The notes beneath the pieces are model-generated. The model was not told the DNA's origin, ran no database searches, and saw only the letters and a list, made by a program, of their open reading frames with translations. 64,000 bases of DNA, from NCBI GenBank assembly GCA_041661105.1, contig JBAZVB010000002.1, positions 299,865 through 363,864 of the forward strand. The letters run 5' to 3'. Shown piece by piece: positions 2,527 through 42,245 of this stretch. Within the stretch, counting starts at the first letter, position 1; each line of letters starts with the position of its first letter. A program made the translations under genes and the position numbers. This DNA is from Patescibacteria group bacterium (GTDB taxonomy: Bacteria; Patescibacteriota; Patescibacteriia; 2-12-FULL-60-25).

Positions 2527-3228
2527 CTAATTGATCAGATAAGACATGGCGGTCCGTATCATGGTGGAGCTTGAGGCGCTTTGAGCCGGGAAAACATGCG
2601 TCCCGATAAAAACGAAAGGCGCCTTATCGATGCCGTCTCCCCGGGCGATATCTATCTTTTGTCGGAGGTAGCTCCGGAGATTCTTATCCTGGCGGCAGGT
2701 GTAGAGCAGACCGTCTTTGTCTTTCAATTTATCGGCCAGGAGGTTAAGGGTCTGATTGTCGATTTTCGGCAGGGAGATCAAAAGCTTGTGAGCTTGCCAC
2801 GCATCATCCAAAAGGCGTGAGCATTCGGATAACACGGCGGCTTCGAAAGAGACATCGTTGTCATCCGTTTTAGCCGGCAAATAATACCAAATAAAACGGA
2901 CCCGGCCTTGGTTGCGGGCCCAACTTTCGAGCTCGCGCGCCAGGGCATTGGACTGCGAGTCGGCGTAATCACCGTAAAAAGCAATCCCGGCGGTGGAGGA
3001 CATCGATCCGATGACCAAGGCGTCAGTCGCCAGGAAAGCCGGCGGCTTGATTTGGTCGTAGGGAACTTTTTTGGGTTCAACCTTTTCCAAAATATCCTGG
3101 GGCGGCGCTCCGCTCAAAAAATAATCCTTGCGATTATGGTACCAACGCCAGCCCATGGAACCCACCAAAACCAGGCAGGCCAGGGCCAGGATAAAGATCG
3201 CCAAGCGCTCTTTGGTAAACCATTTCAT
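2527..3228 (-). CDS. Membrane-anchored DsbA-like thioredoxin-fold protein lacking the CXXC motif
   Basis: N-terminal TM segment. IAFYGDYADSQSNALAREL sits where DsbA family members have F.D..CP.C. The C-terminal APFVFIGTHVF resembles the TPTFFING strand. Confidence 0.45.
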   Translation of the reverse strand: MKWFTKERLAIFILALACLVLVGSMGWRWYHNRKDYFLSGAPPQDILEKVEPKKVPYDQIKPPAFLATDALVIGSMSSTAGIAFYGDYADSQSNALARELESWARNQGRVRFIWYYLPAKTDDNDVSFEAAVLSECSRLLDDAWQAHKLLISLPKIDNQTLNLLADKLKDKDGLLYTCRQDKNLRSYLRQKIDIARGDGIDKAPFVFIGTHVFPAQSASSSTMIRTAMSYLIN

Positions 3229-3230
3229 AT

Positions 3231-4499
3231 TTAGTAGTTGAGATTATAACTGTAGAGCTTGCCGGTTACGGAGTCGGTGAAAACCAGTTTTGTATGATCC
3301 TGGTTCAAGACCGGTTGGTTGATGGGGTGGTTTTGGTCGCTCGAATTAATTTTTTTGGAGACGCCCGTATCAAGGTTGATGTAGTAGAGATCGTCCGGTA
3401 TGTTGGAAAACTTGCTTTTGTCATAACCGGCTCCCATTGGGAGGTCGATGGGCACGGCGCAAAATAATTCCTTATCATTGCTCCAAACGCATTTATCCGC
3501 CCAGGTCATGAGGTTCAATTTTTTACGGTTCCTGCCGATATCCTGGCCGGAGGCTTCCGAGACCCAAAGCATGGGCTTGTCATTGTCTCTTGCGTGATAG
3601 ACGCTGTAGAGCAAAAGTTTGCCGGTCGGGGACCAGCTGGGCACAAACCCCCGGCCCGGAACGGTCAGGGCTTTAAAGTTTTCGTGATTCTTACCCAGGA
3701 GATAGATCTGCTCGGCATTGTCGGCCTGCGGAGTGCCGGTCCGCGAAAAAGCAATGACCTGGTTATTGGGCGACCAGCTCGGGATGACCAGGTCTGCGTT
3801 TTCTCCCATGTGATAAACAGCCGTGGCCTCGTTGCCATCCGGTTGGGCGGTGATCAGGAAACGGTTACCCTCGTCCAAGCCCACGCTCTTGGCCACTACT
3901 TGCTGATCCTGAGGTGCGAATTCAAAATCCGTCCAGTGCGAGGGGAGCGTGACCTGCCTTTGGTCATCAAAGTTGTAATAAATATTGCTGCCGTCCGGAA
4001 AGCCCATGATTGCCTCATCCACGCTATTGCCCCAGCTTACATTATCGACGTTCACGAATTGCCTATCGGAAAGCAGAGTCAGCGTTCCGTCGTCATTGAT
4101 ACGGTAGAAACGCCCGTCTTCAGGATTGTAATAGCGGGTATCGCCTTTGGGTGAAGGGCTAACCGCTTGGGTTACTCCATCTCGGAGCAATGTGACATCG
4201 GCTTGAGCGGTTGCCCCGTTTGTCGGAGTTACGCCGCCCGCCTCCGGTAAAGTCCCACCGCCCGTCACCTCGGAAGTGGTCGTAGCGCCGCGCGGGCCGG
4301 ATTGGCCGAGCGTGCCCGTCAATCCTTCCGGATTTTGCACCTGGATCACGGGAGCGGCCGGCTTAAAGAAAAAATAATAAAGGGCGTAGCCTGTTCCGAT
4401 CGAGAAGAGGATGAAAAATCCGATAAAAAGCAATCGTTTGGTGTTTTCTGTCAAAGTGATCATAAAGGTTATTATATTACGTCGGGAGGCTAATTCCAA
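3231..4499 (-). CDS. Membrane-anchored TolB-like beta-propeller (PD40/WD40-like repeat) protein
   Basis: N-terminal TM segment and a Gly/Thr-rich linker. Repeated PSWSPNNQVIAFS and PSWSPTGKLLLYS motifs are typical of PD40 repeats. The start may instead be the internal Met at about 4463. Confidence 0.55.
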   Translation of the reverse strand: MELASRRNIITFMITLTENTKRLLFIGFFILFSIGTGYALYYFFFKPAAPVIQVQNPEGLTGTLGQSGPRGATTTSEVTGGGTLPEAGGVTPTNGATAQADVTLLRDGVTQAVSPSPKGDTRYYNPEDGRFYRINDDGTLTLLSDRQFVNVDNVSWGNSVDEAIMGFPDGSNIYYNFDDQRQVTLPSHWTDFEFAPQDQQVVAKSVGLDEGNRFLITAQPDGNEATAVYHMGENADLVIPSWSPNNQVIAFSRTGTPQADNAEQIYLLGKNHENFKALTVPGRGFVPSWSPTGKLLLYSVYHARDNDKPMLWVSEASGQDIGRNRKKLNLMTWADKCVWSNDKELFCAVPIDLPMGAGYDKSKFSNIPDDLYYINLDTGVSKKINSSDQNHPINQPVLNQDHTKLVFTDSVTGKLYSYNLNY

Positions 4500-9458: not shown

Positions 9459-9572
9459 TTAAAGCAAAAAGCAAAATTCAAAGAGCAAAATGCAGGTATC
9501 GCTATGCGATTTAATATATATTTGTGCCGAAGGCCTCCTGCATTTTGAAATTTGCTTTTTGAATTTTGAATT
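9457..9572. repeat. Composite inverted-repeat element, copy 1 (AATTCAAA/GCAAAA word arms plus conserved core)
   Basis: Arms gcaaaattcaaagagcaaaatgcagg / cctgcattttgaaatttgctttttgaattttgaatt. Core ggtatcgctatgcgat-AT-rich-gccgaaggcctcc is shared with 13677, 30411 and 59077. Confidence 0.8.
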
Positions 9573-9625
9573 ATCATATTGCTTATCCGGTGTGGGAGTA
9601 TATGGGCAGTGTCAGGTCTCAAGTT

Positions 9626-12511: not shown

Positions 12512-13675
12512 ATGTTAATCGTCCTTATTTTTTTGTTGGTCTTGTCCGTTTTGGTGCTGATCCACGAATTCGGGCATTTTATTGCGGCCAGGATTTTTGG
12601 CGTCAAAGCTGATGAGTTTGGCTATGGTTTTCCGCCCCGGGTGGTCGGTATCGTTAAGGATAAGGGCAAATGGCATAAAGTCAGCGGTAAAGACGAAAAA
12701 GAATACCAGAACACAATCTGGTCTTTGAATTGGTTGCCTTTGGGTGGCTTCGTGCGGATCAAAGGTGAAAACGGGGAAGATGAGACCATAAAAGACAAAG
12801 ATGCTTTCCATGCTAAGCCCATCTGGCAGCGCATCATTATCCTGGCGGCGGGCGTGGCCATGAATTGGTTGCTGGCCTTCGTACTTTTTACCGGCATCTT
12901 TACTTTTGGAGCCACGGCCATTCTGGATGGCGTGCCAGCTGACGCTAAGATAGAAAACAGAGAGGTTAGGATCACTAATCTCGTATCGGGCGGACCAGCG
13001 GACAAAGCGGGTTTAATACCGGGCGATGCAATCATTTCCATTGCAGGAATCAAAGCCGGAGATTACGAACAAGCTAGAACGACCATCGCGGATCAAAAAG
13101 ACAAACCTTTCGAAGTTGATTACCAACGGGATGGCGAGTCTAAAAAAGTTACGGTCAATCCGATTTATCTGGAAGAAATTAAAAAATTTGGCATCGGGGT
13201 CGGCCTGGCTGACGTGGGTAAAGTTAAATTCCGTTTTGATAGGGCTTTGCTTTATGCCGGTGAGGCGGTTGTCGGTTACACCCGCGACATCGTTGTCAGT
13301 TTTGGGACTTTGATTCGCGACTTGGTTCTCTTGCGCCACGTGGAACAAGAAGTGGCTGGTCCGATCGGGATTGCGGTCATCACCGGACAGGTGGCCAAGC
13401 AGGGTATTGTGCCGCTCCTTCAGTTCGCGGCCATTCTTTCCATTAACCTGGCTGTCGTCAACTTCCTGCCGATTCCGGCCTTGGACGGTGGCCGGGTGTT
13501 TTTCCTCATCATTGAAAAGATTAGACGCAAGCCTGTGGCGCGTAGAGTCGAAGCCAGAATCCACCAAATAGCTTTTTTGACTCTAATCGTCTTGATCTTG
13601 CTAGTCACCTTGAGAGATATCGGCAAATACGGCGGAGTTATTTGGGGAGGAATTAAGGGGATGGTAGGAATATGA
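12512..13675 (+). CDS. rseP: RIP zinc metalloprotease RseP (M50 site-2 protease with PDZ domain)
   Basis: HEFGHF zinc motif, a central PDZ-like segment, and NFLPIPALDGG. Confidence 0.9.
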   Translation: MLIVLIFLLVLSVLVLIHEFGHFIAARIFGVKADEFGYGFPPRVVGIVKDKGKWHKVSGKDEKEYQNTIWSLNWLPLGGFVRIKGENGEDETIKDKDAFHAKPIWQRIIILAAGVAMNWLLAFVLFTGIFTFGATAILDGVPADAKIENREVRITNLVSGGPADKAGLIPGDAIISIAGIKAGDYEQARTTIADQKDKPFEVDYQRDGESKKVTVNPIYLEEIKKFGIGVGLADVGKVKFRFDRALLYAGEAVVGYTRDIVVSFGTLIRDLVLLRHVEQEVAGPIGIAVITGQVAKQGIVPLLQFAAILSINLAVVNFLPIPALDGGRVFFLIIEKIRRKPVARRVEARIHQIAFLTLIVLILLVTLRDIGKYGGVIWGGIKGMVGI

Positions 13676-13676
13676 T

Positions 13677-13788
13677 AATTCAAAGAGCAAAATTCAAAGA
13701 GCAAAATTTTGGTGGCCTACGGCATTCATTAAATAAATATCCCGAAGGGATACCGATATTTTGAATTTTGCTTTTTGAATTTTGAATT
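13677..13788. repeat. Composite inverted-repeat element, copy 2 (core in opposite orientation)
   Basis: Arms aattcaaagagcaaaattcaaagagcaaaatttt / gatattttgaattttgctttttgaattttgaatt. Core ggtggcctacggcat-AT-rich-atcccgaagggatacc is the reverse complement of the core in the other copies. Confidence 0.8.
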
Positions 13789-13797
13789 AATAAATTT

Positions 13798-14853
13798 ATG
13801 AAAGATCAATTAGAAGCTTTGCGGCTCGAAATCGAGCGCGACGTGAAAGCGGCCAAATCGCTCGAGGAACTTGAGCAGATTGAGGTTAAGTATTTGGGGC
13901 GCAAAGGTCAGTTGACCTCTATGCTCAAAGGCCTAGCCAATGTCTCGGCCGAAGAGCGGCCGGTGCTGGGTGCTCTAGCTAACAAGATTAAGCAAGCGGG
14001 ACTTGATTTGCTCGCCGGCAAGCGGGAATCCCTCGCGTCCAGTCGCTATGACGCGGTGGCCGAAACGGAACGAGTGGATGTGACCGAGCCGGGCACCCGT
14101 CCGCCGGAAGGTCATTTGCATATAATGACTCAAACCATCCGCGAGATCACGGCGATTTTTGAGAAGATTGGTTTTTATCGCATTCGTTATCCGGAGATTG
14201 ATTGGGATTGGTACGCTTTTGAAGCTTTAAACATGCCGCCCGACCATCCGGCCCGCGATGACTGGGAAACTTTTTTCATGGATGCGCCTCTTTCCAAAAA
14301 AGGGAAGATGGTTATGACGCCGCACACCTCCAATGGTCAGATCCACGAGCTTGAACGACATAAATTTCCGATCCGTTTATTGGGCATAGGCAAATGTTAT
14401 CGCCGTCAAATCGACGCCACGCACACACCCATGTTCCATCAGTTTGAAGGTTTGTTGGTAGACAAGGGAGTGAGCATCACGCATTTACGCGGTATCTTAG
14501 ATTATTTTGCCAAGGAATTTTTTGGACCCGGTCGTGTCTCGCGCATTCGTCCGCATCATTTCAGATTCACCGAACCGTCCTTCGAAGTTGATATCTCCTG
14601 CGGCGTTTGCGGCGGTACGGGTCTCGTCAACAAACAAAAATGCAAAGTTTGCAAACGCGGTTGGCTGGAAATTGGCGGTGCGGGTATGGTCCATCCTAAT
14701 GTTTTGAAAGCCACGGGTGTCGATCCCAAGCAATATACTGGTTTTGCTTTTGGATGGGGAATCGAGCGCGTAGCCATGATGAAAGAGGGCGTCAAAGTCG
14801 ATGACATCCGCATCCTCTACCAGAATGACGTCAGATTTCTTAAGCAATTCTAA
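13798..14853 (+). CDS. pheS: Phenylalanine--tRNA ligase alpha subunit
   Basis: Class II motifs FRFTEPSFEVD and GWGIERVAMM. Also the CxxC..CxxC insert seen in many Gram-positive-type PheS proteins. Confidence 0.95.
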   Translation: MKDQLEALRLEIERDVKAAKSLEELEQIEVKYLGRKGQLTSMLKGLANVSAEERPVLGALANKIKQAGLDLLAGKRESLASSRYDAVAETERVDVTEPGTRPPEGHLHIMTQTIREITAIFEKIGFYRIRYPEIDWDWYAFEALNMPPDHPARDDWETFFMDAPLSKKGKMVMTPHTSNGQIHELERHKFPIRLLGIGKCYRRQIDATHTPMFHQFEGLLVDKGVSITHLRGILDYFAKEFFGPGRVSRIRPHHFRFTEPSFEVDISCGVCGGTGLVNKQKCKVCKRGWLEIGGAGMVHPNVLKATGVDPKQYTGFAFGWGIERVAMMKEGVKVDDIRILYQNDVRFLKQF

Positions 14854-14865
14854 TAACCTTCATTT

Positions 14866-14897
14866 CGTCATCCTGAACTTGTTTCAGGATCTCGATA
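14866..14897. repeat. Half copy (first hairpin) of the gtcatcctgaac element
   Basis: cgtcatcctgaacttgtttcaggatctcgata. The 31-nt portion from gtcatcc onward is identical to 16624..16654. Confidence 0.85.
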
Positions 14898-14910
14898 CTA
14901 AACGCAGGCT

Positions 14911-15462
14911 ATGTCCAACTCCTCAAAAAAGTTAACAAAGATTCTAGATTACGGTTTAGCTTTATTATCGATTGTTATTTTTATAACGGCCTTTTTTACT
15001 TCATCCAAAGAATTTATAACTACAACGTTTTCTCAAGTCAAAATTTGCATCTCATCTTCTTTTTGTTTCTGGCCGGGATTCATAGTTCTAGCATTGTTAT
15101 TAATCTCGGCTTTGGTTTTGTTCTTGATAATACGTACGAGAACGAATAAAGAGAGATGGTATTTATCTTTAAACAAAGCAGCTTGGCCATCCTTTATTTT
15201 TGGAGCTATTTTGCTGATTGTATCAATTTTAAAATTTTCAAATGCCACGGAGTTAATAGATCTTCCCTCAATGTTATTGATGTTATTTTCTGTAATTGTA
15301 CCCTTCCTAACATTAATTATTTTCTGTATTAGTTTCATTGCAAGTCCCAAATCCAAAATAAGAGAAAACATGGTTTTCTTCAGAACTATATCGATTGTAG
15401 GTTTTATCGTGAGTTGTATATTAGGACCGGAATTATTGATAGTACTGTTTGTAATGTCTTAA
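14911..15462 (+). CDS. Small multi-pass membrane protein (183 aa), unknown function, AT-rich
   Basis: About 5-6 hydrophobic segments. Low GC relative to pheS and pheT. Confidence 0.55.
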   Translation: MSNSSKKLTKILDYGLALLSIVIFITAFFTSSKEFITTTFSQVKICISSSFCFWPGFIVLALLLISALVLFLIIRTRTNKERWYLSLNKAAWPSFIFGAILLIVSILKFSNATELIDLPSMLLMLFSVIVPFLTLIIFCISFIASPKSKIRENMVFFRTISIVGFIVSCILGPELLIVLFVMS

Positions 15463-15468
15463 GAGAAT

Positions 15469-15831
15469 ATGAAAAAAAGAATACTCGTGCCTATACTGAT
15501 TGGTTGTGCCTTAGAAATTGGGGCGGGGATCTTGTTTTTAACGAATGCCACTTCTGATTTGGTTTATACTCTGATTTTGTCCGGGCTAGTTTTTGTAGGG
15601 GTAGGAGTAGTTATTTTGATATTCGCAAAATATTTTGAAAAAAGTCATATACAAATGCATGGCATATCGTTGATACTTCTTGGATTGCTTTCAACCATTC
15701 CGATTATTTATGGTCTGGTTAAGTCCGCGTTAATGAAAGATTGGCTAGCATTTCTGATGGTATTTGTTATTTTTCTGTGTGCTTCATTTATTTGCGGTTT
15801 GGGACTATTTTTTTGGAAAATAAAACGTTAA
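15469..15831 (+). CDS. Small multi-pass membrane protein (120 aa), unknown function
   Basis: Four hydrophobic segments. Starts 7 nt after the previous stop. Confidence 0.55.
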   Translation: MKKRILVPILIGCALEIGAGILFLTNATSDLVYTLILSGLVFVGVGVVILIFAKYFEKSHIQMHGISLILLGLLSTIPIIYGLVKSALMKDWLAFLMVFVIFLCASFICGLGLFFWKIKR

Positions 15832-15871
15832 ATTCCTCGTAATTCGTAATTTTGAATTCGTAATTAAAAGT

Positions 15872-15961
15872 ATGAACCTCCTAGTCTCCTACGATTGGCT
15901 GAAAGAGTATGTCAGCCTTAAAGAAAAGCCCGAAGATTTCGCGGCGCGGATTTCGCTTTGA
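15872..15961 (+). pseudogene. Remnant of the pheT 5' end (29 codons then stop)
   Basis: About 88 nt colinear with pheT 17207 onward, with 2 mismatches that are both synonymous (GAA/GAG, TAC/TAT). Encodes MNLLVSYDWLKEYVSLKEKPEDFAARISL then TGA. Confidence 0.9.
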
Positions 15962-15987
15962 GTGGTAAAAACTAAACATTGTTTAAT

Positions 15988-16350
15988 ATGACTACGACTG
16001 ATCGTTTCGAACCATATCTTGAACCTCTGTATGTGCCAGCGTTTTTCGGTTGGTTGACTTTGATTTTTGATCATTATCTGACTCGAAGTACTTTTCTTCT
16101 GTATGTTGGCATGATTTTTTCTGGCTTACTTATTCTTACTTCAATTCTGGTCATAGTGTACGAATTTCTTTTATTTTTTAGAAGAATAAAACCACGCGCA
16201 TTGATAGATGGAAACGTTAAAATATATAAATTTATCAGATGGATATTTGGTGCAGTAGGCCTTGTTTCGGTTCTAATTTCTGTCGGGTTTATCCTTGCTC
16301 TTGGATCAATGCTGTCATCAGGTCCTTGGGATAAATTAGATCAAATATGA
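15988..16350 (+). CDS. Small membrane protein, paralogous to the C-terminal half of 16660..17172
   Basis: MTTTDRFEPYLEPLYVP... versus MTAIDPFEPYLEPLYLL... in the later gene. Three to four TM segments. The ORF track starts it at 15979 with an alternative start codon. Confidence 0.55.
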   Translation: MTTTDRFEPYLEPLYVPAFFGWLTLIFDHYLTRSTFLLYVGMIFSGLLILTSILVIVYEFLLFFRRIKPRALIDGNVKIYKFIRWIFGAVGLVSVLISVGFILALGSMLSSGPWDKLDQI

Positions 16351-16583
16351 AAAAGTCTTCCAGATACATAATAAGTGCTGTCCTGGGTGCAATAGGCGTG
16401 ATGAGCTATGTCTTTTATGTCGCTGTTACTTATATTGATTTTGATCCGGATCCAAATATTGGTAGCGTAGCCTTTGTTAAACCAGAAATAGTATCAGGGG
16501 TTATTTTATTCGGTGGTATATCGTTATTGATCGGTGCAATATTAGCAATCAGCACGTTATTCTCGAAGTCTAAAAACATATGA
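16347..16583 (+). CDS. Small two-TM membrane protein (78 aa)
   Basis: ATGA overlap with the upstream gene. Two hydrophobic helices. Confidence 0.5.
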   Translation: MKKSSRYIISAVLGAIGVMSYVFYVAVTYIDFDPDPNIGSVAFVKPEIVSGVILFGGISLLIGAILAISTLFSKSKNI

Positions 16584-16613
16584 ACCTCCTAGTCTCCTAC
16601 GATTGGCTAAAGA
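16580..16613 (+). pseudogene. Second, shorter remnant of the pheT 5' end
   Basis: atgaacctcctagtctcctacgattggct is identical to pheT 17207..17235, then the sequences diverge. Confidence 0.85.
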
Positions 16614-16623
16614 TTCTTTTGAA

Positions 16624-16654
16624 GTCATCCTGAACTTGTTTCAGGATCTCGATA
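16624..16654. repeat. Half copy of the gtcatcctgaac element
   Basis: gtcatcctgaacttgtttcaggatctcgata, identical to the copy downstream of pheS. Confidence 0.85.
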
Positions 16655-16659
16655 TCAAT

Positions 16660-17172
16660 ATGCCTAAAACAGTTTCCTTTACACTAATGATTGTTGGTTT
16701 TTTGATTTCCTCCACTCTTTGGGCTTGGATTGCTTACCCGCAACAATGGTATCCAGGGTTGTATGTCGTTGGTTTCTATGGAGTCATTTTGATGTTTATT
16801 GGAGGGATAGGAGCCCTCAAAGAAAAAATTCGTAATTTAAACATGACCGCAATCGATCCTTTTGAGCCGTATTTAGAGCCTTTATACTTACTTGTACCCG
16901 GCCCTATTGGCATCATTTTTTCTATTTTTGTTTGGGAGAATGGATTGGCTATTATGTTTTTTTACTACACGATGATGACAATTAGTGGCCTAGTTGTAAT
17001 ATATTTGGGACTTCTTATTCTCAGAATACTACCAGCCAAAGCATTGGTTAAAGAGATTGGACCAATTTATTCAAGAATAAGGTGGGTTTTGGCAACAGCA
17101 GGCGTAGCTGGATTATTTTTTACTTTTTTATGTGTCGTAGCGGCCGTTTTCAGAATAAATCTCAGTTCATAA
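16660..17172 (+). CDS. Multi-pass membrane protein (170 aa), unknown function
   Basis: Start taken at MPKTVSF. The ORF-track start at 16603 would translate the pheT remnant and the repeat (VILNLFQDL). The C-terminal half is paralogous to 15988..16350. Confidence 0.55.
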   Translation: MPKTVSFTLMIVGFLISSTLWAWIAYPQQWYPGLYVVGFYGVILMFIGGIGALKEKIRNLNMTAIDPFEPYLEPLYLLVPGPIGIIFSIFVWENGLAIMFFYYTMMTISGLVVIYLGLLILRILPAKALVKEIGPIYSRIRWVLATAGVAGLFFTFLCVVAAVFRINLSS

Positions 17173-17206
17173 ATTATAGATAAGTAAATAAGAATTTCAA
17201 AAATAT

Positions 17207-19789
17207 ATGAACCTCCTAGTCTCCTACGATTGGCTGAAAGAATACGTCAGCCTTAAAGAAAAGCCCGAAGATTTCGCGGCGCGGATTTCGCTTTCTGGTC
17301 CGTCCGTGGAAAAGATTCTGCCGCTCTATTCGGAACTCGACGGGATCGTGGTCGGAGCAGTCCGGTCACTTAAGCCGCACCCCCAGGCGGATAAACTTCA
17401 GGTCGTGTCCGTCGATATAGGACGCACAGGACGCGAAGGACGTTCAGGACTCTTGTCGTTAGTCTGTGGCGGATCAAATCTTTATGTAGGACAAAAAGTC
17501 GCCGTGGCCCTTGTTGGCGCTAAAGTCAGATGGCATGGTCAAGGAGATTTGATTGAGCTTAAGCCGGCCTTAATCCGCGGCGTCAAAAGCGAGGGCATGA
17601 TTTGTGCGGCGAGTGAAATTGGTTTGGGCGAGGCTTTCCCACACGAAGAACGCGAGATTTTGGATTTGGGTAAAGAAATACCAGAGATGGACGTCGAGCC
17701 AGGCACCCCGCTATCGGATGCTTTGGGTGGCAAGGACGACGTGGCCATGGATATTGAAGTTACCAGCAACCGTCCTGATTGTATGGGTATGGTTGGCATG
17801 GCTCGCGAAGCCTCAGCGATTTTGAAACAGCCTTTTAAGTGGAAAGAGCCAAGCCTAAATTCAAAATTCAAAATTCAAAATTCAAAATCAGGACGCGGGA
17901 CGACGGGTGTGAAAGTTACCATCGACGCTAAGAAAGCTTGTTCACGCTACATTGGAGTCAGAATCGACAACGTGAAGGTCAAAAAGTCACCTTGGTGGCT
18001 CAAACGTCGCTTAATGTCGGCCGGTATCCGTCCCATTAATAATCTCGTGGATATCACAAATTACGTCATGCTCGAAACGGGTCAGCCGATGCACGTGTTC
18101 GACGCGGCTAAGCTACGTCGTCATCCTGAACTTGTTTCAGGATCTAAGACACGTAACACGGAGATGCTGAAACAAGTTCAGCATGACACACCACCGGAGA
18201 TCCGCGTGCGATTCGCACGGACGGGGGAGAGGATAATGGCTTTGGATGGTAAGACTTATCAGTTGGACGATAAGATTTTGGTGATTGCTGATGCCGAGCG
18301 TCCGGTAGCCATTGCTGGCGTGATGGGAGGAGAACAGACCGGAGCTGACGAAAAGACAACCAACATCGTGCTCGAAGCCGCGACTTTTGATCTAGTCATC
18401 GTTCGCAAAGGTTCACGCAAGATTAATTTGCAATCAGATTCGCAACTGCGTTTTGAAAAAGGTTTGTCCCAGATGGCCCCGCCTTCAGCCATGGCACGAG
18501 CGATTGAGTTGGTCTTGGAATTAGCCGGAGGTCAGATTGTCGGCACACCGGCTGACGTTATGCCCGCCGCCTATAAACCTCTGTCATATTCCGTCACGAC
18601 GGATGAGGTAAATGGTTTGATTGGCATTGAAGTTAAAAAGACTGAAATGGTGGATGTGCTCAAACGCCTGGGTTTTGGAGTCAAAGTTACCGGTAAACAC
18701 ATCAAAGCCACTGTCCCATGGTGGCGTGATCATGATATTGAAATGGGACGCGACTTGGTTGAGGAAATCGCCCGCGTCATTGGTTATGCCAGCATCCCTT
18801 CGATTGTGCCTATCGCCGTCGCGCCTCGTGAGACTGATCCGGTTATCAAATGGGAGGATCGCCTCAAAGACGTGGCTAAAGCGGCGGGTTACACGGAGGT
18901 TTTTAGTTGGTCTTTCGTGTCAGAGGATTTGTTGCGCAAGGCCAGTTATGACCCGGCTCATCTTTTGCGCCTCCAGAATCCTTTGTCTAACGACTGGCTG
19001 GTCATGCGTCCCTCGCTTATGCCTGGCATGTTGCAGGCTGTGGCGGATAATCAAGAACGCGAAAAAGATCTTCATCTTTTTGAGTGCTCAAATGTTTACA
19101 TTCGTCCCACGTCCCACGTCCCACGTCCTACGGAAAGGACGATCAGGACGAAGGACGATCAGGACGTTTGGTCTGACCTGCCGGATGAAGTGCCGGAGTT
19201 TACGCTCATGATTCGCGAGGCGGATAATCAAGATCCTTGGCGCAAGGCCAAAGGATTCGTTGAACATCTTTTCGAGGAGTATGGCATCGGCGAGGTGCAT
19301 TGGAAGCGCGTCTCACGTGACGCGGTTTGGCATCCCGGTCGCACGGCCCAGGCTTTTAGCGGCGATAAGCTGTTGGCCACGGTCGGGGAGATCGGTCCGC
19401 AGATGTCCGAAGCCTTTAAGATCAAGGGTCGAGTTGGCGCAGCCGTGGTTAACATTCGTGAGTTCATCTCTTTTGCCAAAATTTCCAAAGCCTATGTGCC
19501 GCCCACGCCTTATCCCGAGGCTAAGCGCGATTTAGCATTGGTTGTCGATCGGAATGTCGATTATCGTGAACTGGAATTGGCCATCCTCCGCGCGGATGAA
19601 CGTATCTTAAAAGTTGAATGGTTTGATACTTACGCCGGCAAGGGGATTGTTGACAACAAAAAATCAGTGGCCATGCATTTGACTATCGGCTCACGCGAAA
19701 AAACCCTCGAAAGCTCTGAGGTGGATGGCGTGCTGGAAGATGCGGTTTTAGCTTGTAAGGAAAAGTTCAAGGCAGAAGTAAGAGGATAA
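17207..19789 (+). CDS. pheT: Phenylalanine--tRNA ligase beta subunit, carrying several repeat-derived in-frame inserts
   Basis: N-terminal MNLLVSYDWLKEYV, tRNA-binding domain, and B3/4, B5 and anticodon-binding-like regions. At 860 aa it is longer than I would expect for PheT, which I attribute to the inserts. Confidence 0.95.
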   Translation: MNLLVSYDWLKEYVSLKEKPEDFAARISLSGPSVEKILPLYSELDGIVVGAVRSLKPHPQADKLQVVSVDIGRTGREGRSGLLSLVCGGSNLYVGQKVAVALVGAKVRWHGQGDLIELKPALIRGVKSEGMICAASEIGLGEAFPHEEREILDLGKEIPEMDVEPGTPLSDALGGKDDVAMDIEVTSNRPDCMGMVGMAREASAILKQPFKWKEPSLNSKFKIQNSKSGRGTTGVKVTIDAKKACSRYIGVRIDNVKVKKSPWWLKRRLMSAGIRPINNLVDITNYVMLETGQPMHVFDAAKLRRHPELVSGSKTRNTEMLKQVQHDTPPEIRVRFARTGERIMALDGKTYQLDDKILVIADAERPVAIAGVMGGEQTGADEKTTNIVLEAATFDLVIVRKGSRKINLQSDSQLRFEKGLSQMAPPSAMARAIELVLELAGGQIVGTPADVMPAAYKPLSYSVTTDEVNGLIGIEVKKTEMVDVLKRLGFGVKVTGKHIKATVPWWRDHDIEMGRDLVEEIARVIGYASIPSIVPIAVAPRETDPVIKWEDRLKDVAKAAGYTEVFSWSFVSEDLLRKASYDPAHLLRLQNPLSNDWLVMRPSLMPGMLQAVADNQEREKDLHLFECSNVYIRPTSHVPRPTERTIRTKDDQDVWSDLPDEVPEFTLMIREADNQDPWRKAKGFVEHLFEEYGIGEVHWKRVSRDAVWHPGRTAQAFSGDKLLATVGEIGPQMSEAFKIKGRVGAAVVNIREFISFAKISKAYVPPTPYPEAKRDLALVVDRNVDYRELELAILRADERILKVEWFDTYAGKGIVDNKKSVAMHLTIGSREKTLESSEVDGVLEDAVLACKEKFKAEVRG
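18120..18187. repeat. Full gtcatcctgaac...ttcagcatgac element inside the pheT reading frame
   Basis: gtcatcctgaacttgtttcaggatc...gagatgctgaaacaagttcagcatgac, translated in frame as HPELVSGSKTRNTEMLKQVQHD. Confidence 0.85.
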
Positions 19790-19828
19790 AAAAGTAGAGA
19801 CGTCCCGTGGGACGTCTCTACTTTTTTA
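19789..19828. terminator. Bidirectional intrinsic terminator between pheT and the convergent gene
   Basis: aaaaagtagagacgtccc..gggacgtctctactttttt: a 13-bp perfect stem flanked by an A-run and a T-run. Confidence 0.8.
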
Positions 19829-20101
19829 TAACCCGTCAACTTCTTTTTTACCGGCCGCCAGTTCGCGGACTTGTTCTTTGTCGAGTCCGAGCAAGAGAGC
19901 CTGAAATTCTCCAACGTGAGTCTTTTCTTCCTTGGCAATTTCCATCAGGACTTTTTTGATTTTGGTTGACTTTGACTTAGCCGCGAACTGCTCGTAAAGA
20001 TTAACTGCATCCAGCTCGGCGATGATAGCCGCCCGCAGGATTTCTTTATCTATGTTCTGTTGCGGAACTTTACTTAAATCGATGGGGAGGGAAGACATCA
20101 T
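19826..20101 (-). CDS. Small ferritin-like protein resembling encapsulated ferritin (EncFtn/rubrerythrin-like)
   Basis: IIAELDAVNLYEQF and IAKEEKTHVGEF match the ELxAVxxYxQ and EExxHxxE metal-site helices of EncFtn-type proteins, as I recall them. Confidence 0.55.
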   Translation of the reverse strand: MMSSLPIDLSKVPQQNIDKEILRAAIIAELDAVNLYEQFAAKSKSTKIKKVLMEIAKEEKTHVGEFQALLLGLDKEQVRELAAGKKEVDGL

Positions 20102-20240
20102 AGAAAATTAACAATTAACAATTAACAATTAAGAATGTCAGAAACAGTATACCTTATCCTGCCAAGATTGACACAGCCTGTAATCAGGGGTAAAAATCGG
20201 TGGTTGTTGAGGTTGTTGTTCCGTCACAATTGGAGGTTCC

Positions 20241-21107
20241 ATGGAAACCAGGAAGATCGCGTTGGCTTGTTTCATCGGCGGAGCGCTTTGCTCTCTCGTC
20301 GCGTTGCTCTTCGCGCCGGCCTTTTGGTGGCTCGGCCTGATCGCCGGCTTTGTCGGCGGCTATCTAGCCTACGATTTCCGCGAGGTGCCCCGAGCAGTTC
20401 CCAAAGCCGCGCAGGCAGTGGGTGAGGTCGTTGCTGAAGAATGGTCTGATGTCAAAAAGTCGCTGGTCAGACCGCGGCCGATCATTTATGCGGCAACACT
20501 TTTGACAGTAACCATAGGCATCGCCTGCTGGCCTTCGTGGCGCAACCATATGACGGGTGATGCAGTAGGATTCGCATACATCGTCCTGATGGGCTTCGCA
20601 TGGTGTGCCGTATCCTTGTTTCTGATGTTTCTTTTGAAGATGGGGGTAGAAGCAGAACGGTGCTTCTTTGTCTGGCCCTCTGATAAAGGCATAGGGTACA
20701 ATTGGTACCAGAAAGAGCTCGAGAAAGGATTCACGGAAAAACCTTACACCTACGCCAATGCCTACTGGTGGATCGCTCGAGGACTAGACATCTGTCTCCC
20801 TACAGCCATTACCTTCCTACTCTGTGACATGTGGATGTACCTGGCGATCGGTATCGGCTACGGCTGCTACTACTTCGGCCTGTTCTGCCGGGAACTCTTC
20901 GAACTCATCCATTCGCACAAGCGTCTGCTCTGCGCCATCGATTGTGCGATTGGCGGAGCCATGAGCTACCTCCTACTCGCCAGGTCCGCGCACACGCTGG
21001 GCGCGCAAGTCGCGCTCGTCCTCTTCGGCGGCTTGCTCGGCGCCGGCCTCGGCGTCCTGAACTGGGAGGTTGTCTCCAAGCGCCTCCTGCACGTTGCCAA
21101 GAGCTAG
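20241..21107 (+). CDS. GC-rich multi-pass membrane protein, unknown function
   Basis: TTGACA-17-TAAAAT promoter at about 20169-20198 and a GGAGG RBS. Several TM segments. Visibly higher GC than the flanks. Confidence 0.6.
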   Translation: METRKIALACFIGGALCSLVALLFAPAFWWLGLIAGFVGGYLAYDFREVPRAVPKAAQAVGEVVAEEWSDVKKSLVRPRPIIYAATLLTVTIGIACWPSWRNHMTGDAVGFAYIVLMGFAWCAVSLFLMFLLKMGVEAERCFFVWPSDKGIGYNWYQKELEKGFTEKPYTYANAYWWIARGLDICLPTAITFLLCDMWMYLAIGIGYGCYYFGLFCRELFELIHSHKRLLCAIDCAIGGAMSYLLLARSAHTLGAQVALVLFGGLLGAGLGVLNWEVVSKRLLHVAKS

Positions 21108-22942: not shown

Positions 22943-23042
22943 TGAGTATCGGCAAAAACTTGGCAGGCCGGTGCCCACCCGTTAAGATACGGAGAGTTTA
23001 CAACTTATCCGCAGGCTTTATGCCGTCAGCGGAATCACGCAT

Positions 23043-23714
23043 ATGCAAGAAGGTAATTGGCGGGAACAACTAATAAAGGAAACGGCTGTAATCGCATATA
23101 TAGATTTGGCTAACGTATTCAATTGGCGAAAAACTTTAAAATGGCAGATTCGGATAGAGGATATGATTCGGAGCATATGGGCGTTTCCGGCAGTTAAAGA
23201 GATAAAGGTGTATTACGGGACAAATGACCGTGAACCGGAAAAATCAAAGGCACTGCATAATAGAATCCGTAAAGCGGGGGCTATATTACGCACGAAACCG
23301 GTGAAATATATTCGTAAAACCATTGACGAATCTTTTTTTGTCAGAAAATCAACTTTAAAATCATTTACTCCAGAGGCTACAACTTTAGTTCAAAATATCG
23401 TTTCGGCAGTCCAATCCAGCGGTTCGGTGATAGAGGAACGGAAGTGTAATTTTGATGTCGAAATGGCAATGGAGATGCTGGATGATATGGATCGTGTCTC
23501 GGCTGTCATGTTACTTTCCGGAGACTCTGACTTCTTTGCTCCTTTGGAAAGGTTGAAAATAAAAAATAGGCGAATATATATTGTCGGAGTACGCGGTCAG
23601 GTAGCAAAAGAATTGTTTGACATAAAAGATGTGTTTATCGATTTTGGAAAATTATACACTGGTAAAAGAACCGCTCTAGAAAGCGAAAATCCCGCTTTTG
23701 GCGGGACCGCGTGA
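23043..23714 (+). CDS. NYN-domain (LabA/DUF88-like) putative ribonuclease
   Basis: AYIDLANV..., CNFDVEMAMEML and LLSGDSDFFAPLERLK fit the NYN/LabA acidic motifs. Confidence 0.7.
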   Translation: MQEGNWREQLIKETAVIAYIDLANVFNWRKTLKWQIRIEDMIRSIWAFPAVKEIKVYYGTNDREPEKSKALHNRIRKAGAILRTKPVKYIRKTIDESFFVRKSTLKSFTPEATTLVQNIVSAVQSSGSVIEERKCNFDVEMAMEMLDDMDRVSAVMLLSGDSDFFAPLERLKIKNRRIYIVGVRGQVAKELFDIKDVFIDFGKLYTGKRTALESENPAFGGTA

Positions 23715-23770
23715 TTTGTAGCGTTTCCACTACGATACTAGCATAACATAAGAATCGGTGTAGTCAAAAT

Positions 23771-26700
23771 ATGCTTGAGGATAAAGATGAAATACAGCGT
23801 AATAAAGCCCCCTTCGTCCACCTTCACGTCCACTCCATGTATTCGCTTTCGGATGCCATGGGTGATGTGGATGAAGTTGTTAAGTCTGCTAAGGCCAAAG
23901 GTTTTGATACTATTGCTCTGACAGATCATGGTGCGCTCTACGGCACAATTGAATTCTACGAAGCGGCGCAGAAAGAGGGGATAAAGCCTATTATCGGGCT
24001 TGAAGCCAACATTGCGCCTAACCTTTTGACTGACAGGCGTCCCCGCATTGATGATTGGACCTATCATTTGACGTTATTGGTTGAAACGCATGAAGGCTAC
24101 CAAAATTTGCTCAAGCTCGTCTCTATTTCGTATTTGGATGGTTTTTATTATAAGCCGCGCATGGATAAAAATATCCTGCGCCAATACCACCAAGGTTTGA
24201 TCGCGCTCTCCGGCTGTATGAAGGGGCAGATACCCAAAGCATGCCAGGAGAAGGATTTGGTAAAGGCAGAAGCGGCCCTGCGTGAATATCAGGATATTTT
24301 TGGTGTGGATAACTTCTTTTTGGAGCTGGTCCACCACCCGGAGTCACCGACCCAAATTGATATCAATCAGAACTTGATTAGGCTCTCCCAAAAGACCGGC
24401 GCGCCTCTAGTGGCTACAAAAGATGTTCATTATATAGATGAGGATGATGCCGAGGCTCAAGACGCTCTCCAATGTATCCACGCCGGCAAGTTGATTTCCG
24501 ATACTAACCGTTTTACGATCAGGACCATGGATCATTCCATGGTCAGCGCCGATGTCATGATCCAGGCTTTTGCTGACGTGCCGGAGGCGATCGAAAACAC
24601 GCGTAAGATCGCGGATCGTTGCAATGTCAAACTCGAACTGGGTAAAAATTTGCTCCCCAAGTTCGATGTGCCGGAAGGTGAGACTGAGATGTCCTATTTA
24701 CGCAAATTATCGAGGCAAGGCCTGGTCGAACGTTATGGAAACGAACCGACGACCGAAGCTAAAGAACGCATGGAGTTCGAGCTTTCAGTCGTTGAGCGCA
24801 TGGGTTTCTCCGGATACTTTTTAATCGTGCATGATTATGTGAACTGGGCTAAAGACCATGGTGTGATCGTAGGTCCTGGCCGCGGTTCGGGCGCGGGTTC
24901 GATCATGGCTTATGCGCTTAAGATTACCAACCTGGATCCGTTGCATTATGGTTTGCTGTTCGAGCGTTTCCTCAATCCAGACCGCATCAGCATGCCTGAT
25001 TTTGATATGGATTTCGACGACGTCCGGCGCAAGGACGTGATTGAATATGTGACAAAAAAATACGGGGCAGATCGTGTGGCCGGCATTATCACTTTTGGAA
25101 CCATGGCCGCTCGGGCCGCGGTGCGCGATGTCGGTCGCGTGCTTGGCTGGACGTTCCAGGAAGTTGATCGCGTGGCCAAAGTCATACCGCCGCCCGTGCA
25201 AGGCAAGAACATACCCATCCATATTTCGCGCAAGGAAAATCCCGAGCTTAAGGCGTTGGATGAAACTGACCCGCGCGTCACGCAATTACTTGACCTGGCT
25301 TCAAGGCTCGAAGGTACTTCGCGCCATGCCAGCCAACATGCCTGCGGCATCGTGATTGCGCCCGGCGCTTTAGTCGAATATGCTCCGCTTCAGAAAGCGC
25401 AGGGCGGCGATGTGGAGCAAGTCATCCAATATTCCTTGCATCCGTGCGAGGCGGTCGGGCTGTTGAAGATGGACTTTCTTGGCCTTTCCAACCTGACGAT
25501 TATTCGCGAATGTCTGGAAATTATTGAAGCCGTGCATGGCGATCAGATCAACTTGGATTATATACCGTTGGATGATGAACAAACTTTTGAACTATTAGGC
25601 AGGGCGGAGACTACGGGCGTCTTTCAGTTGGAATCCGACGGCATGAAGCGGTATATCCGCGAGCTCCGTCCCTCGTGCATCGACGACATCATCGCCATGG
25701 TGGCCCTTTACCGCCCCGGCCCCATGCAATTCATAGATTCGTTTATCGCCCGCAAACATGGCAAAGAGAAAATCGTCTACGCCCACCCGTTGACGGAAAA
25801 CGCGCTTAAAAGCACTTACGGCATTCCGGTCTATCAGGAACAGGTCATGCAAGTCTCAAAAGATATGGCCGGGTTTACGGGTGGCCAGGCCGATACGTTG
25901 CGTAAGGCTATGGGCAAGAAGATTGCCAAGCTCATGGCAGAGATGCGGGAAAAGTTTATAAACGGGTCAGTGAAAAACGGGGTGGAACAATCCATCGCTG
26001 AATCTGTTTTTACCCAGTTTGAGGAATTCGCGGCCTACGGTTTTTGCAAGTCGCACGCGGCCTGCTACGCCATGATCGCTTACCAAACGGCTTACCTCAA
26101 ATCCCGTTATCCTGAATGTTTCATGGCAGCGCTTTTGAATTCCGACAGTTTAAACATGGACCGCGTGACTATCGAAGTTGAAGAATGCCGTCGCATGGGC
26201 ATAAACGTCCTTCCGCCCGACGTCAATGAATCTTTTGCCGGTTTTTCAGTTATCAAGAGCACTGTCCAGCCCTCGCCGGAACGCAAGGCTGGCCAGCGCG
26301 GGACGATTCGTTTTGGTTTGCTGGCCATCAAGGGTTTGGGCAATGACGTTGTTGAATATATTATCCATGAGAGAAAGCAGAACGGGCAGTATAAAGATTT
26401 GGCTGATTTCGTAAAGCGCGTGCAGGGCAAATACATCAACAAGAAGTCTTTGGAATCCCTGGTCCGTTCCGGAGCCATGGATCGTTTTGGAGACCGCGGT
26501 CAGTTGTTTTATAACATAGAAAATATCTTGGATTTCCATCGCCAAGCGGAGCGCGAGGTTCAGTCCGGCCAATTCAACCTTTTCGCGACGTCAGCTCAAA
26601 GTCCGGCCGCGGGTTTGAATCTCAAGCCTTCCCCAATGGTTACGCCGCAGGAAAAACTCAAGTGGGAAAAAGAGCTGCTTGGTTTGTACGTCTCGGAGCA

Positions 26701-30261: not shown

Positions 30262-30403
30262 TGTTCCGGCTACCAACCGGATATCGGAGGAAAACTAGAT
30301 AAAAGAGCCTCGATGAAAGTCGGGGAAGGCGGGTGGAACCGCCCCACGAAGCTTTAGCGAAGTGGGGTCCCGACGAGTTAATTATTAGCTGGTCGGATTT
30401 TTA
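30262..30403 (+). promoter_or_regulatory. Candidate T-box leader (Thr-specific) with a very short specifier hairpin
   Basis: Antiterminator-like fold: A1 CGGG (30330-33), 7-nt bulge UGGAACC (30334-40), A2 GCCCCAC (30341-47), loop, GUGGGGU (30362-68), CCCG (30369-72). GGGUGGAACCGC matches the T-box consensus. Hairpin uccgg-CUACCAA-ccgga (30265-30281) presents ACC followed by A. A weak alternative hairpin cccgac...gtcgg plus a T-run lies at 30369-30403. Confidence 0.6.
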
Positions 30404-30410
30404 TATAAAT

Positions 30411-30521
30411 GCAAAATTCAAAGAGCAAAATTCAAAATGAAGGTGTCGCTTCGCGATTTAATTATAATTTTAATGCCATAGGCCACCAGCATTTTACTTT
30501 TTGAATCTTGAATTTTGAATT
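30411..30521. repeat. Composite inverted-repeat element, copy 3
   Basis: Arms gcaaaattcaaagagcaaaattcaaaatgaagg / agcattttactttttgaatcttgaattttgaatt. Core ggtgtcgcttcgcgat-AT-rich-gccataggccacc. Confidence 0.8.
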
Positions 30522-30533
30522 ATAATAAATATT

Positions 30534-32321: not shown

Positions 32322-32398
32322 ACGGTAGCAGGTAGACGATAGCCTGAAAATCAAACTACGTTCTGGCTACCAGCTACCGTCTAAAAGCTATCGTCTAG
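32311..32398. repeat. TAGACGATAGC/GGTAGAC-word hairpin between convergent genes (likely bidirectional terminator)
   Basis: atagacagtagacggtagcaggtagacgatagcc ... ggctaccagctaccgtctaaaagctatcgtctag. Confidence 0.75.
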
Positions 32399-35381: not shown

Positions 35382-35456
35382 CTAGACGATAGCTGGTAGA
35401 CAGTAGGCGGTAGCCGGATTTTTTGGAAGCTACTGTCTACCGTCTATTGTCTAAGG
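35382..35456. repeat. TAGACGATAGC-word hairpin
   Basis: ctagacgatagctggtagacagtaggcggtagcc ... gctactgtctaccgtctattgtctaagg. Confidence 0.75.
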
Positions 35457-35462
35457 CCTAGG

Positions 35463-35801
35463 TCAGGCTTTAACCAACTGCTTGAAAATCTCCGGGTGCT
35501 TGGCAGCGATTTGGGACAAGACCTTCTTGTCCAAGAGGATCTTGCGTTTCTTGAGGCTGCCCATGACTTTATTGAACGAAGTTCCCAGCTCGTGGGCCGA
35601 GGCGTTGATGCGGATCTGCATCAATCCGCGATTGACGCGCTTCTTAAGCTTGCGGCTGACATAAGCCTGCACGCCTGCTTTGGCCGAAGCGGTTTTGGCG
35701 AGAGTGATCTTTGATTTGCGACCCCACATCATGCCTTTGGTGCGCGCCAATATATTCTTACGGCGTTTGATGCGGTGCATTCCACGTTTGACTCGGGGCA
35801 T
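35463..35801 (-). CDS. rplT: 50S ribosomal protein L20
   Basis: MPRVKRGMHRIKRRKNILARTKG... is a typical L20 N-terminus. Confidence 0.95.
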   Translation of the reverse strand: MPRVKRGMHRIKRRKNILARTKGMMWGRKSKITLAKTASAKAGVQAYVSRKLKKRVNRGLMQIRINASAHELGTSFNKVMGSLKKRKILLDKKVLSQIAAKHPEIFKQLVKA

Positions 35802-42186: not shown

Positions 42187-42245
42187 TTGACAAATATGCT
42201 GATTTGTGCTATATTATCGTATTCTTTAAACACCAAAGTTGTGTG
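42187..42245 (+). promoter_or_regulatory. Promoter plus conserved 5' leader module, copy A
   Basis: TTGACA (42187-92), 17 nt, extended -10 TGc TATATT (42210-15), then ttctttaaacaccaaagttgtg. About 75 % identical by hand alignment to 63174..63232, with the same spacing. Confidence 0.65.

Follow-up and report, generated by a model that had tools for sequence, protein, structure and literature searches.

The pheS-pheT operon of a Patescibacteria group bacterium (GenBank assembly GCA_041661105.1, contig JBAZVB010000002.1) is split by DNA that encodes five small predicted membrane proteins and carries two truncated copies of the start of pheT. The operon lies in a 64,000-nucleotide (nt) stretch of this contig (positions 299,865 to 363,864), called here the window. 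In related genomes, the same junction is either nearly closed or occupied by other small membrane-protein genes. With moderate confidence, we read the junction as a recombination hotspot at which at least three spacer alleles were concatenated in the window through illegitimate or one-sided homologous recombination. An earlier interpretation, referred to as the sequence-only reading, had proposed serial insertion or duplication of cassettes at the pheT 5' end, in the manner of elements that target tRNA genes.

The split pheS-pheT operon

The pheS (13798-14853) and pheT (17207-19789) genes are both intact with full Pfam architectures, and the gap between them is 2,353 nt. The window pheS is 87-94% identical to that of relatives. 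Five open reading frames (ORFs), O1-O5, occupy the gap. All are co-oriented with pheS-pheT and have 2-5 predicted transmembrane (TM) segments each, as counted by a crude Kyte-Doolittle hydrophobicity measure. The sequence-only reading had described an AT-rich five-ORF membrane array of ~2.35 kb, and its coordinates hold to within 1-2 nt. The features are listed below, with protein lengths in amino acids (aa).

13798-14853, forward strand: pheS, phenylalanyl-tRNA synthetase alpha subunit (Pfam tRNA-synt_2d, 1.4e-82, and Phe_tRNA-synt_N); upstream conserved flank
14854-14897, forward strand: native left edge of the spacer, made up of 13 nt and hairpin copy 1 (GTCATCCTGAACTTGTTTCAGGATCTCGATA, 14867-14897); near-identical sequence follows pheS in locus L085
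14911-15462, forward strand: O1, 183 aa, ~5 predicted TM segments (Kyte-Doolittle); an ORF without homologues, and only a probable gene
15469-15831, forward strand: O2, 120 aa, 4 predicted TM segments (Kyte-Doolittle)
15836-15871, forward strand: native right edge of the L085 type (CGTAATTCGTAATTTTGAATTCGTAATTAAAAGT), immediately 5' of a pheT ATG; matches L085
15872-15961, forward strand: pheT-start stub 1, 88 nt aligning to pheT at 86/88; a 29-codon ORF, then TGA
15988-16350, forward strand: O3, 120 aa, EPYLEPL ("EPY") family, predicted three-helix membrane protein (homologues at 28-47% identity; AlphaFold)
16347-16583, forward strand: O4, 78 aa, 2 predicted TM segments (Kyte-Doolittle), an ORF without homologues
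16580-16633, forward strand: pheT-start stub 2, 29 nt identical to pheT by alignment; a 17-codon ORF, then TGA
16624-16654, forward strand: hairpin copy 2, aligning to copy 1 at 31/31; 5 nt 5' of the O5 ATG
16660-17172, forward strand: O5, 170 aa, two predicted N-terminal TM segments plus an EPY domain (residues ~62-170, by homology); 5 segments by Kyte-Doolittle
17173-17206, forward strand: current pheT upstream region (…GAATTTCAAAAATAT), similar to the junction between the second EPY gene and pheT in L014
17207-19789, forward strand: pheT, beta subunit, intact, 860 aa, five Pfam domains; downstream conserved flank and putative recombination anchor

The spacer has a guanine-plus-cytosine (GC) content of 0.31-0.39 versus ~0.47-0.57 in the flanks (300-nt windows) and is the lowest-GC 2 kb of the whole 64 kb. 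GC at third codon positions (GC3) is 0.27-0.35 in O1-O5 and 0.53-0.70 in pheS, pheT and two native membrane proteins. Because GC3 differs from that of the native membrane proteins, the low GC is a difference in codon usage and not merely the result of hydrophobic amino acids. Elsewhere in the window, lower-GC stretches at 55001-58000 and 23001-24000 (0.39-0.44 against an average of ~0.50) may be accessory segments.

The pheT start is present three times in the window, where shuffled controls expect no extra copy. Stub 1 (15872-15959) matches pheT 17207-17294 at 86 of 88 positions and stays in frame for 29 codons up to a TGA at 15959-15961. Both differences are synonymous (GAG/GAA and TAT/TAC), as the sequence-only reading had noted. 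The first 66 nt of this stub equal the pheT start of a relative, L089, including the GAG TAT variant. Since that variant occurs in a functional pheT, the two differences represent allelic variation rather than decay. The earlier suggestion that the 88-nt copy came from a functional allele fits this observation; by themselves, two synonymous differences are weak evidence for it. Stub 2 (16580-16608) is identical to pheT at 29/29 positions, as had also been reported, and at 34/35 through 16613 with a 1-nt gap. The 15 nt that follow the identical part (16609-16623; AGATTCTT..GAAG) were considered as a remnant of the pheS 3' end, a candidate dropped because it is too short to test.

The positions of the stubs fit former cassette-pheT junctions. 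Stub 1 follows an upstream region of the kind found before pheT in L085, and the ATG of stub 2 overlaps the O4 stop codon. This overlap (ATGA) is a typical coupled junction. The O4 start overlaps the O3 stop in the same way (ATGA). Each stub stops exactly 26 nt 5' of the next cassette ATG (15959-15988 for O3; 16631-16660 for O5), a spacing that may be due to chance or to termination-reinitiation.

The window lies in a MEGAHIT metagenome contig (ENA ERZ27249449 k141_584429; 208,919 bp), and repeats sit at the junctions of the array. Assembly from such a source could in principle fuse strain variants at short repeats into one chimeric contig, and the sequence-only reading had allowed that the remnants might be assembly artefacts. 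In a protein-level comparison, identical O2, O3, O4, O5 and pheT proteins with consecutive accessions were found in two NCBI metagenome-assembled genomes (MAGs). One MAG has them as MFA6100011-17 in a contig of 381,851 bp, and the other as MFA6406522-28 in a contig of 82,861 bp; in the latter MAG, pheS has 1 aa changed. A different run (SRR6484324) gave an independent Logan contig that matches 14867-15865, the O1-O2 part, at 100% identity. The repeats of 88, 31 and 29 nt are all shorter than the assembler k of 141. Because the same gene order recurs in three assemblies, one of them from a strain with a different pheS, because the Logan contig matches and because the repeats fall below k, an artefact is extremely improbable.

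The junction in related genomes

A pheS-based scan with one genome per species gave 80 loci, to which a pattern scan of metagenomes and look-ups of the members of clusters added others. The window comes from a bacterium of the candidate phyla radiation (CPR) that is related to Candidatus Uhrbacteria MAGs. In its closest relatives (L002-L005, L084, L088 and L090; pheS 87-93% identical), pheS and pheT are 1-6 nt apart, as in 'taaTatg'. Compared with these genomes, the 2.35-kb spacer is thus inserted DNA. The sequence-only reading had called for a comparison of this spacing across relatives, and the junction proves polymorphic. Among the 64 loci with both genes, the spacer is at most 20 nt in 29, 21-299 nt in 11, and at least 300 nt in 24.

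Long spacers (0.3-1.3 kb) encode one to three small membrane proteins and nearly always have a GC content below that of their flanks. The recurrent families are the EPY family, a family of ~200-220 aa with a KPWRM motif, a family of 88-95 aa, and one with an MLVDC motif. Singletons include an EamA-like half-transporter and a methyltransferase. Multi-gene arrays are present in L092, L014, L091, L019, L008 and the P0019 contig. L092 has an EPY gene with an N-terminal extension, a gene for 67 aa and a KPWRM gene; L014 and L091 have two EPY genes each. Literature searches found no earlier description of cassettes between pheS and pheT.

The flanks of these spacers are shared among loci that hold different genes. 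In L085, whose pheS is 74% identical to that of the window, the order is pheS, TGACCTTCATTCC (13 nt), the hairpin GTCATCCTGAACTCGTTTCAGGATCTCGATA, one EPY gene, GAATCGTAATTCGTAATTTTGAATTCGTAATTAAAGT (a CGTAATT repeat), and pheT. Both of these edges are found in the window, at 14854-14897 and, with 1 indel, at 15836-15871, but there they enclose O1-O2 and not an EPY gene. Related CGTAATT-repeat spacers are also present in L006 and L007. The layout of a hairpin followed by an EPY gene is common to L085 and to hairpin copy 2 and O5 of the window, with its 5-nt gap. The sequence 5' of the real window pheT resembles the EPY-pheT junction of L014, not that of L085. One post-pheS palindrome is common to L012, which has a KPWRM gene, and to L013 and L015, which have EPY genes. 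A KPWRM gene is also present in L089, which belongs to the cluster defined by at least 90% identity in pheS. The KPWRM cassettes adjoin pheS and pheT with margins of 6-13 nt and have no flanking repeats. Since L085 and the window, L012 and L013/L015, and L089 show the same flanks around different genes, these loci document the replacement of cassettes between conserved flanks.

A scar similar to those of the window was found at one more locus. In L077, whose pheS is 56% identical, a 34-nt copy (88%) of its own pheT start (3215-3248 versus 3674-3707) begins an inserted membrane ORF of 150 aa in a spacer of 24% GC. The copy translates as MNLNSVYNLLK, compared with MNLNISYNWLK in pheT, and its breakpoint falls at the same pheT position as that of stub 2, after codons 10-11. 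The search for pheT fragments beside membrane genes that the sequence-only reading had proposed thus gave one positive locus; no remnant was found in the others of ~70 related loci, including L092. When metagenomes were scanned for a degenerate form of the pheT start, only three loci came back, each matching once.

These comparisons bear on the possibility that the whole array is ancestral and was deleted in close relatives, with the stubs as incidental old debris and no ongoing traffic. An EPY gene with the same flanks is present in L085 at only 74% pheS identity, so EPY occupancy is old, and all EPY contexts seen lie directly 5' of pheT. Old debris should decay, however, and the stubs are 98-100% identical to pheT while hairpin copy 2 matches at 31/31. 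It is also more probable that an empty allele took the place of an occupied one than that precise deletions to 'taaTatg' recurred in several lineages, and EPY and KPWRM genes alternate among close relatives. An ancestral array is quite unlikely on this evidence.

Gene content also differs between pheT/rubrerythrin and dnaE. In the window (20241-21107 and neighbours), this interval has a TM protein of 288 aa, ORFs of 112 aa and 413 aa, and an NYN protein; in L088 (10647-12917), it has RibD_C and ORFs of 198 aa and 104 aa. Variable small genes are therefore not limited to the pheS-pheT junction.

How the array may have formed

In the favoured reading, a hotspot in the Uhrbacteria-like clade would house promoterless, co-oriented genes for small membrane proteins, mainly of the EPY family, the ~200-aa KPWRM family and several others. 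Spacer alleles would be exchanged by homologous recombination in the flanks, which would be the pheS 3' end with the post-pheS palindrome on one side and the first ~90 nt of pheT on the other. The first 88 nt of pheT share 85-93% nt identity among the closest lineages, compared with ~61-70% for the next 120 nt. This unusual conservation at the nt level makes the pheT start a good recombination anchor.

At least three alleles may have been joined head to tail, concatenated instead of swapped. The first would consist of the left edge with its hairpin, O1, O2, the CGTAATT right edge and pheT nt 1-88. The second would consist of O3, O4 and pheT nt 1-29, and the third of the hairpin, O5 and the intact pheT. 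Each upstream unit would thus end with the start of its former downstream pheT. The joins could result from unequal or illegitimate exchange between alleles, or from incoming DNA that is anchored in pheT at one end and joins illegitimately at its other end within the pheT 5' region of the recipient, with a breakpoint in the first 30-90 nt. Viability would require an intact copy of both pheS and pheT, so a truncated pheT start would be left behind as a scar. Where a cassette abuts pheT directly, as O4 would have done, the breakpoint must fall within pheT, and a stub results. We infer that the DNA arrived by uptake from related strains or through unequal exchange between alleles. The earlier proposal of serial addition with regeneration of the pheT start is retained in this scheme, with the stubs at former junctions; integration of the tRNA-gene type is not.

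Part of the proposed history has counterparts at single loci. EPY genes and both flanks are found in L085, L013-15, L082 and L091, and none of the loci has a counterpart of O1, O2 or O4. The synonymous-codon identity of the window pheT to its closest relatives is 0.38-0.44 over alignment columns 31-140, compared with ~0.60 over the rest of the gene, while that between L002 and L004 stays at 0.62-0.74.

Several observations weigh against this reconstruction. A second identity trough in pheT, at columns ~541-595, means that the 5' dip is not unique; it shows pheT to be mosaic in general, and the dip is therefore compatible evidence only. No donor allele was found for O1-O2 or O3-O4, and the history of three alleles is a reconstruction. 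Stubs are present only in the window and L077, and L092 stacks three cassettes with no stub. Were a divergent donor the source of the present pheT 5' end, the 86/88 identity between stub 1 and pheT would be above what is typical between lineages (85-93%), and a within-species donor or later gene conversion would be needed. DNA uptake and recombination are themselves proposals drawn from sequence comparison.

In-situ duplication offers another route. Unequal crossing-over in one lineage could have duplicated a unit of hairpin, EPY gene and pheT start in tandem, after which the gene copies diverged, unrelated ORFs were gained, and the pheT starts were kept alike by gene conversion or by selection, for example as upstream ORFs (uORFs) acting in translation start. 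The recurring order of hairpin and pheT start, the paralogy of O3 and O5, and the tandem EPY pairs of L014 and L091 all agree with such an origin, and the common 26-nt spacing of the stubs could mean functional retention. The ages of the parts do not agree with it. A single event makes all parts the same age, yet the stubs are 98-100% identical to pheT and the hairpins identical at 31/31, while O3 and O5 share only 35% aa identity. The equal divergence of parts expected from a simple segmental duplication is thus absent, and because of this contrast a single old tandem duplication is insufficient unless later homogenisation took place. O3 is also nearer to homologues in other genomes, and O1, O2 and O4 are mutually unrelated. 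Stub 1 has an edge of the L085 type whereas the real pheT has an upstream region of the L014 type, and the units therefore differ in origin. We regard the tandem duplication as rather unlikely.

Some mobile elements also regenerate their target. Islands at tRNA genes, and SXT/R391 elements at the 5' end of prfC, insert at the end of a gene and restore that gene. By analogy, small elements with an attachment site in the pheT 5' end could have integrated serially, each carrying a replacement pheT start, by means of a recombinase that was lost or is encoded elsewhere. The inserted DNA is low in GC and lies between direct repeats of the target, the intact target is regenerated, and two independent breakpoints (stub 2 and L077) fall at the same pheT position. 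The sequence-only reading saw no recombinase, and precomputed Pfam annotation likewise has none within ~10 kb on either side. The spacer itself holds five small TM ORFs with no family hits and no integrase or excisionase, and the neighbours are housekeeping genes. The inserted units are 0.6-1 kb and have no mobility genes. Attachment sites with a fixed core would give repeats with a common boundary, but the stubs, of 88 and 29-34 nt, end at different pheT positions. Twenty-two other cassette loci have no duplication, and the narrow-margined KPWRM cassettes have no repeats. Searches of 2.9 million viral contigs, PHROGs and PADLOC gave no relatives. The analogy with tRNA-targeting elements is not supported on these points, and site-specific integration is very unlikely.

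A further possibility extends the favoured reading. The junction could be a recombinase-free "cassette dock" within an essential, constitutively expressed operon, with two homology handles, the near-invariant ~90 nt at the pheT start and the palindrome after pheS. By way of these handles, a population would swap and stack its promoterless small-membrane-protein genes. The stubs would then be kept as uORFs that hand ribosomes on to the next cassette, and the EPY family would travel as a passenger dedicated to the dock, serving the cell envelope or host/phage interaction. This more specific proposal is unlikely, although conceivable.

Spacer proteins, dispersed repeats and known parallels

The EPY family covers O3 and the C-terminal two-thirds of O5. 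The sequence-only reading had recognised O3 and the C-terminal half of O5 as paralogous, and the 35% identity (E ~1e-9 to 3e-10) bears out the relationship. A recent duplication is not indicated, as O3 is nearer to foreign homologues (P0019, 47%; P0002, ~42%; the second EPY protein of L014, L014b, 40%) than to O5. The O5 architecture, with N-terminal TM segments before the EPY domain, is also found in P0029 of L092, and NCBI annotates the 170-aa form. The family is very rare: at a clustering threshold of 50% identity, it accounts for 15 clusters out of 1.84 billion representatives. Its members conserve an N-terminal D-x-x-EPYLEPL-x-x-P motif, a VYE motif, a KPRAL loop and an RW pair. Since the EPYLEPL motif varies synonymously between genomes, as between the window and L085, it is under constraint at the protein level. 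All EPY contexts seen lie directly 5' of pheT: two in the window, two each in L014 and L091, and one each in L013, L015, L082, L085 and L092. O3 has 2 segments by Kyte-Doolittle and three long helices in its AlphaFold model (predicted local distance difference test score 86.6), and a Foldseek search of this model against the PDB gave no match with E < 1.

The other spacer proteins are more isolated. O1, O2 and O4 are unrelated to one another. No homologue of O1 was found among 5.8e9 proteins, and the ENA gene caller chose an antisense ORF at its position. The sole database match of O2 is O2 itself (P0003), which is present in two NCBI MAGs, JGI, ENA and Logan. O4 has no homologue among the related loci, and the identical protein is present in the two NCBI MAGs. 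Nothing above threshold was found for O1-O5 in Pfam, NCBIfam, PHROGs or PADLOC, and the EPY profile, O1, O2 and O4 have no relatives in the viral contigs. The earlier guesses of immunity, exclusion or a holin-like role gain no support from these searches.

A scan of 13400-20200 for promoters and terminators gave counts that match shuffled expectation, and thus speak neither for nor against separate transcription, with no terminator within the spacer; the first strong terminator-like hairpin lies 3' of pheT at 19786-19829. Because the spacer has no excess of promoter-like or terminator-like sites, we tentatively infer that the cassettes are read from the pheST transcript. The spacer proteins would then be expected to be accessory envelope proteins expressed from a housekeeping operon. 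A coupling of pheT expression to the supply of Phe-tRNA through Phe-rich ORFs, similar to the pheM leader, was rejected. O1-O5 contain 6-12% Phe compared with ~6% in two native TM proteins, and this content is not distinctive because small polytopic proteins and AT-rich codons explain it.

The hairpin copies at 14867-14897 and 16624-16654 are identical, within 1 nt of the positions that the sequence-only reading had given, after pheS and after the second remnant. The post-pheS hairpin has an 8-bp stem and folds at -12.8 kcal/mol (z -2.6). As seen in L085, this copy is the native left edge of the spacer. As a mark of cassettes the hairpin does not serve: its 25-nt core has 6 copies in the window against 0 expected, mostly as inverted pairs and with two copies in frame within pheT. 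For the pairs 18120/18163, 47295/47342 and 48349/48390, the folding energies lie between -31 and -35 kcal/mol (z -4.6 to -7.1). The hairpin is thus a dispersed genome-wide palindromic repeat and not a cassette-specific site. It is similar to repetitive extragenic palindromic (REP) sequences, miniature inverted-repeat transposable elements (MITEs) and Rickettsia palindromic elements in being a short palindrome that is dispersed between genes and also found in frame within coding genes. This family differs in having no Rfam entry, and an Rfam scan of the window returned tmRNA and tRNAs only.

Related repeats are found within pheT itself. The inverted hairpin pair at 18120-18187 is in frame, encodes RHPELVSGSKTRNTEMLKQVQHD and folds at -35.5 kcal/mol (z -7.1). 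The insertion is present at the same site in L006, L007 and L088, is absent from L002-L004 and L008, and resembles the Rickettsia palindromic elements within coding genes. Further in-frame repeat units occupy variable pheT loops at 17418-17451, 17857-17893 and 19103-19166 (GGACG-type, AATTCAA x4 and CGTCCCA/AGGACG inverted), and relatives have other insertions at the same alignment positions. In L083 (reverse strand), an in-frame palindromic insertion (GTCGACAGTCGACTGTCGACAGTCGAC) occupies pheT codons ~17-30, right after the conserved start.

Other repeats are spread over the window. Many intergenic regions contain inverted repeats of 7-nt units in 14-nt periods (AATTCAA/AGAGCAA, TAGACGG/TAGCTGG, CGTAATT, GTGTAAC), at 13669-13796, 9460-9579, 30400-30527, 32312-32402, 35383-35465, 45623-45802, 59385-59448 and 62938-63001. 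One 14-nt-period architecture is common to several sequence families, and repeats of the same kind directly follow pheS in L006, L007, L012, L013 and L015. Complete hairpin-pair elements at 47295-47366 and 48349-48415 bracket a ~1-kb gene (~47407-48339). Their arms are CCTGAA/TTCAGG versus GCCGAA/TTCGGC, CCCGAA/TTCGGG and GCTGAA/TTCAGC, and these compensatory changes suggest selection on structure, not sequence. A promoter-like sequence of 57 nt (TTGACAAA...TGTGCTATATTA...TTCTTTAAA) is present at 42187-42243 and 63175-63231, 21 kb apart and 75% identical, with the second copy directly 3' of tRNA-Pro.

Fixed spots between core genes that are filled by homologous recombination in conserved flanks are known from bacterial pan-genomes. 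The pheS-pheT junction is similar in its place between core genes, its variable low-GC content and its empty sites in close relatives. It differs in lying inside a two-gene essential operon and in having promoterless, co-oriented cassettes of 0.25-0.7 kb with scars. In integron cassette arrays, promoterless co-oriented small cassettes likewise accumulate at a single site, where a promoter 5' of the array drives them. The window has no IntI within ~10 kb by Pfam annotation, no attI, and no attC at the cassette ends; the hairpin, itself a genome-wide repeat, is at 2/5 boundaries. An integron is therefore not supported.

The closest published analogue is the orphan displacement arrays. Arrays of displaced orphan modules at type VI secretion system (T6SS) effector-immunity loci have been attributed to homology-facilitated illegitimate recombination (Kirchberger et al. 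2017, PMC5361080), as have Rhs C-terminal displacement and the orphans of contact-dependent inhibition (CDI) systems (as cited in PMC5361080). In these arrays as in the window, heterogeneous small genes are stacked beside a conserved anchor, and displaced units keep a fragment of the anchor; here, the anchor is the conserved 88 nt of pheT, and fragments are retained in the two stubs and in L077. In the published arrays, the units are homologous to same-locus units in other strains; in the window, this holds for the EPY genes, and O1, O2 and O4 have no homologues. In both cases, no recombinase is involved, and scarless simple swaps are commoner than stacking. The window differs in that its anchor is the essential housekeeping gene pheT and not a toxin gene, and its host is a CPR bacterium. 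The geometry is mirrored: 5' stubs have been pushed upstream here, where the published arrays have 3' tips pushed downstream. O1-O5 have no hits that would indicate a toxin or immunity domain (Pfam, NCBIfam, PADLOC), and the flanks are pheS and pheT.

By these likenesses, the array is best read as a variant of the known dynamics of hotspots and displacement arrays, unusual for its location and its host, and it reveals no new molecular machine. It defines the very rare EPYLEPL family, every known copy of which is directly 5' of pheT. For annotation, it carries a warning: in these genomes, short ORFs that begin like pheT and peptides derived from repeats are probably recombination debris. The pheS-pheT pair is a textbook case of a tightly linked essential operon, and 24 of 64 sampled loci of one Patescibacteria clade hold fast-turnover membrane-protein genes inside it. 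The window genome keeps junction scars that would show how such genes get added. For these uncultivated CPR bacteria, which probably scavenge DNA, the scars are a concrete footprint through which homology-anchored illegitimate recombination can be tested.

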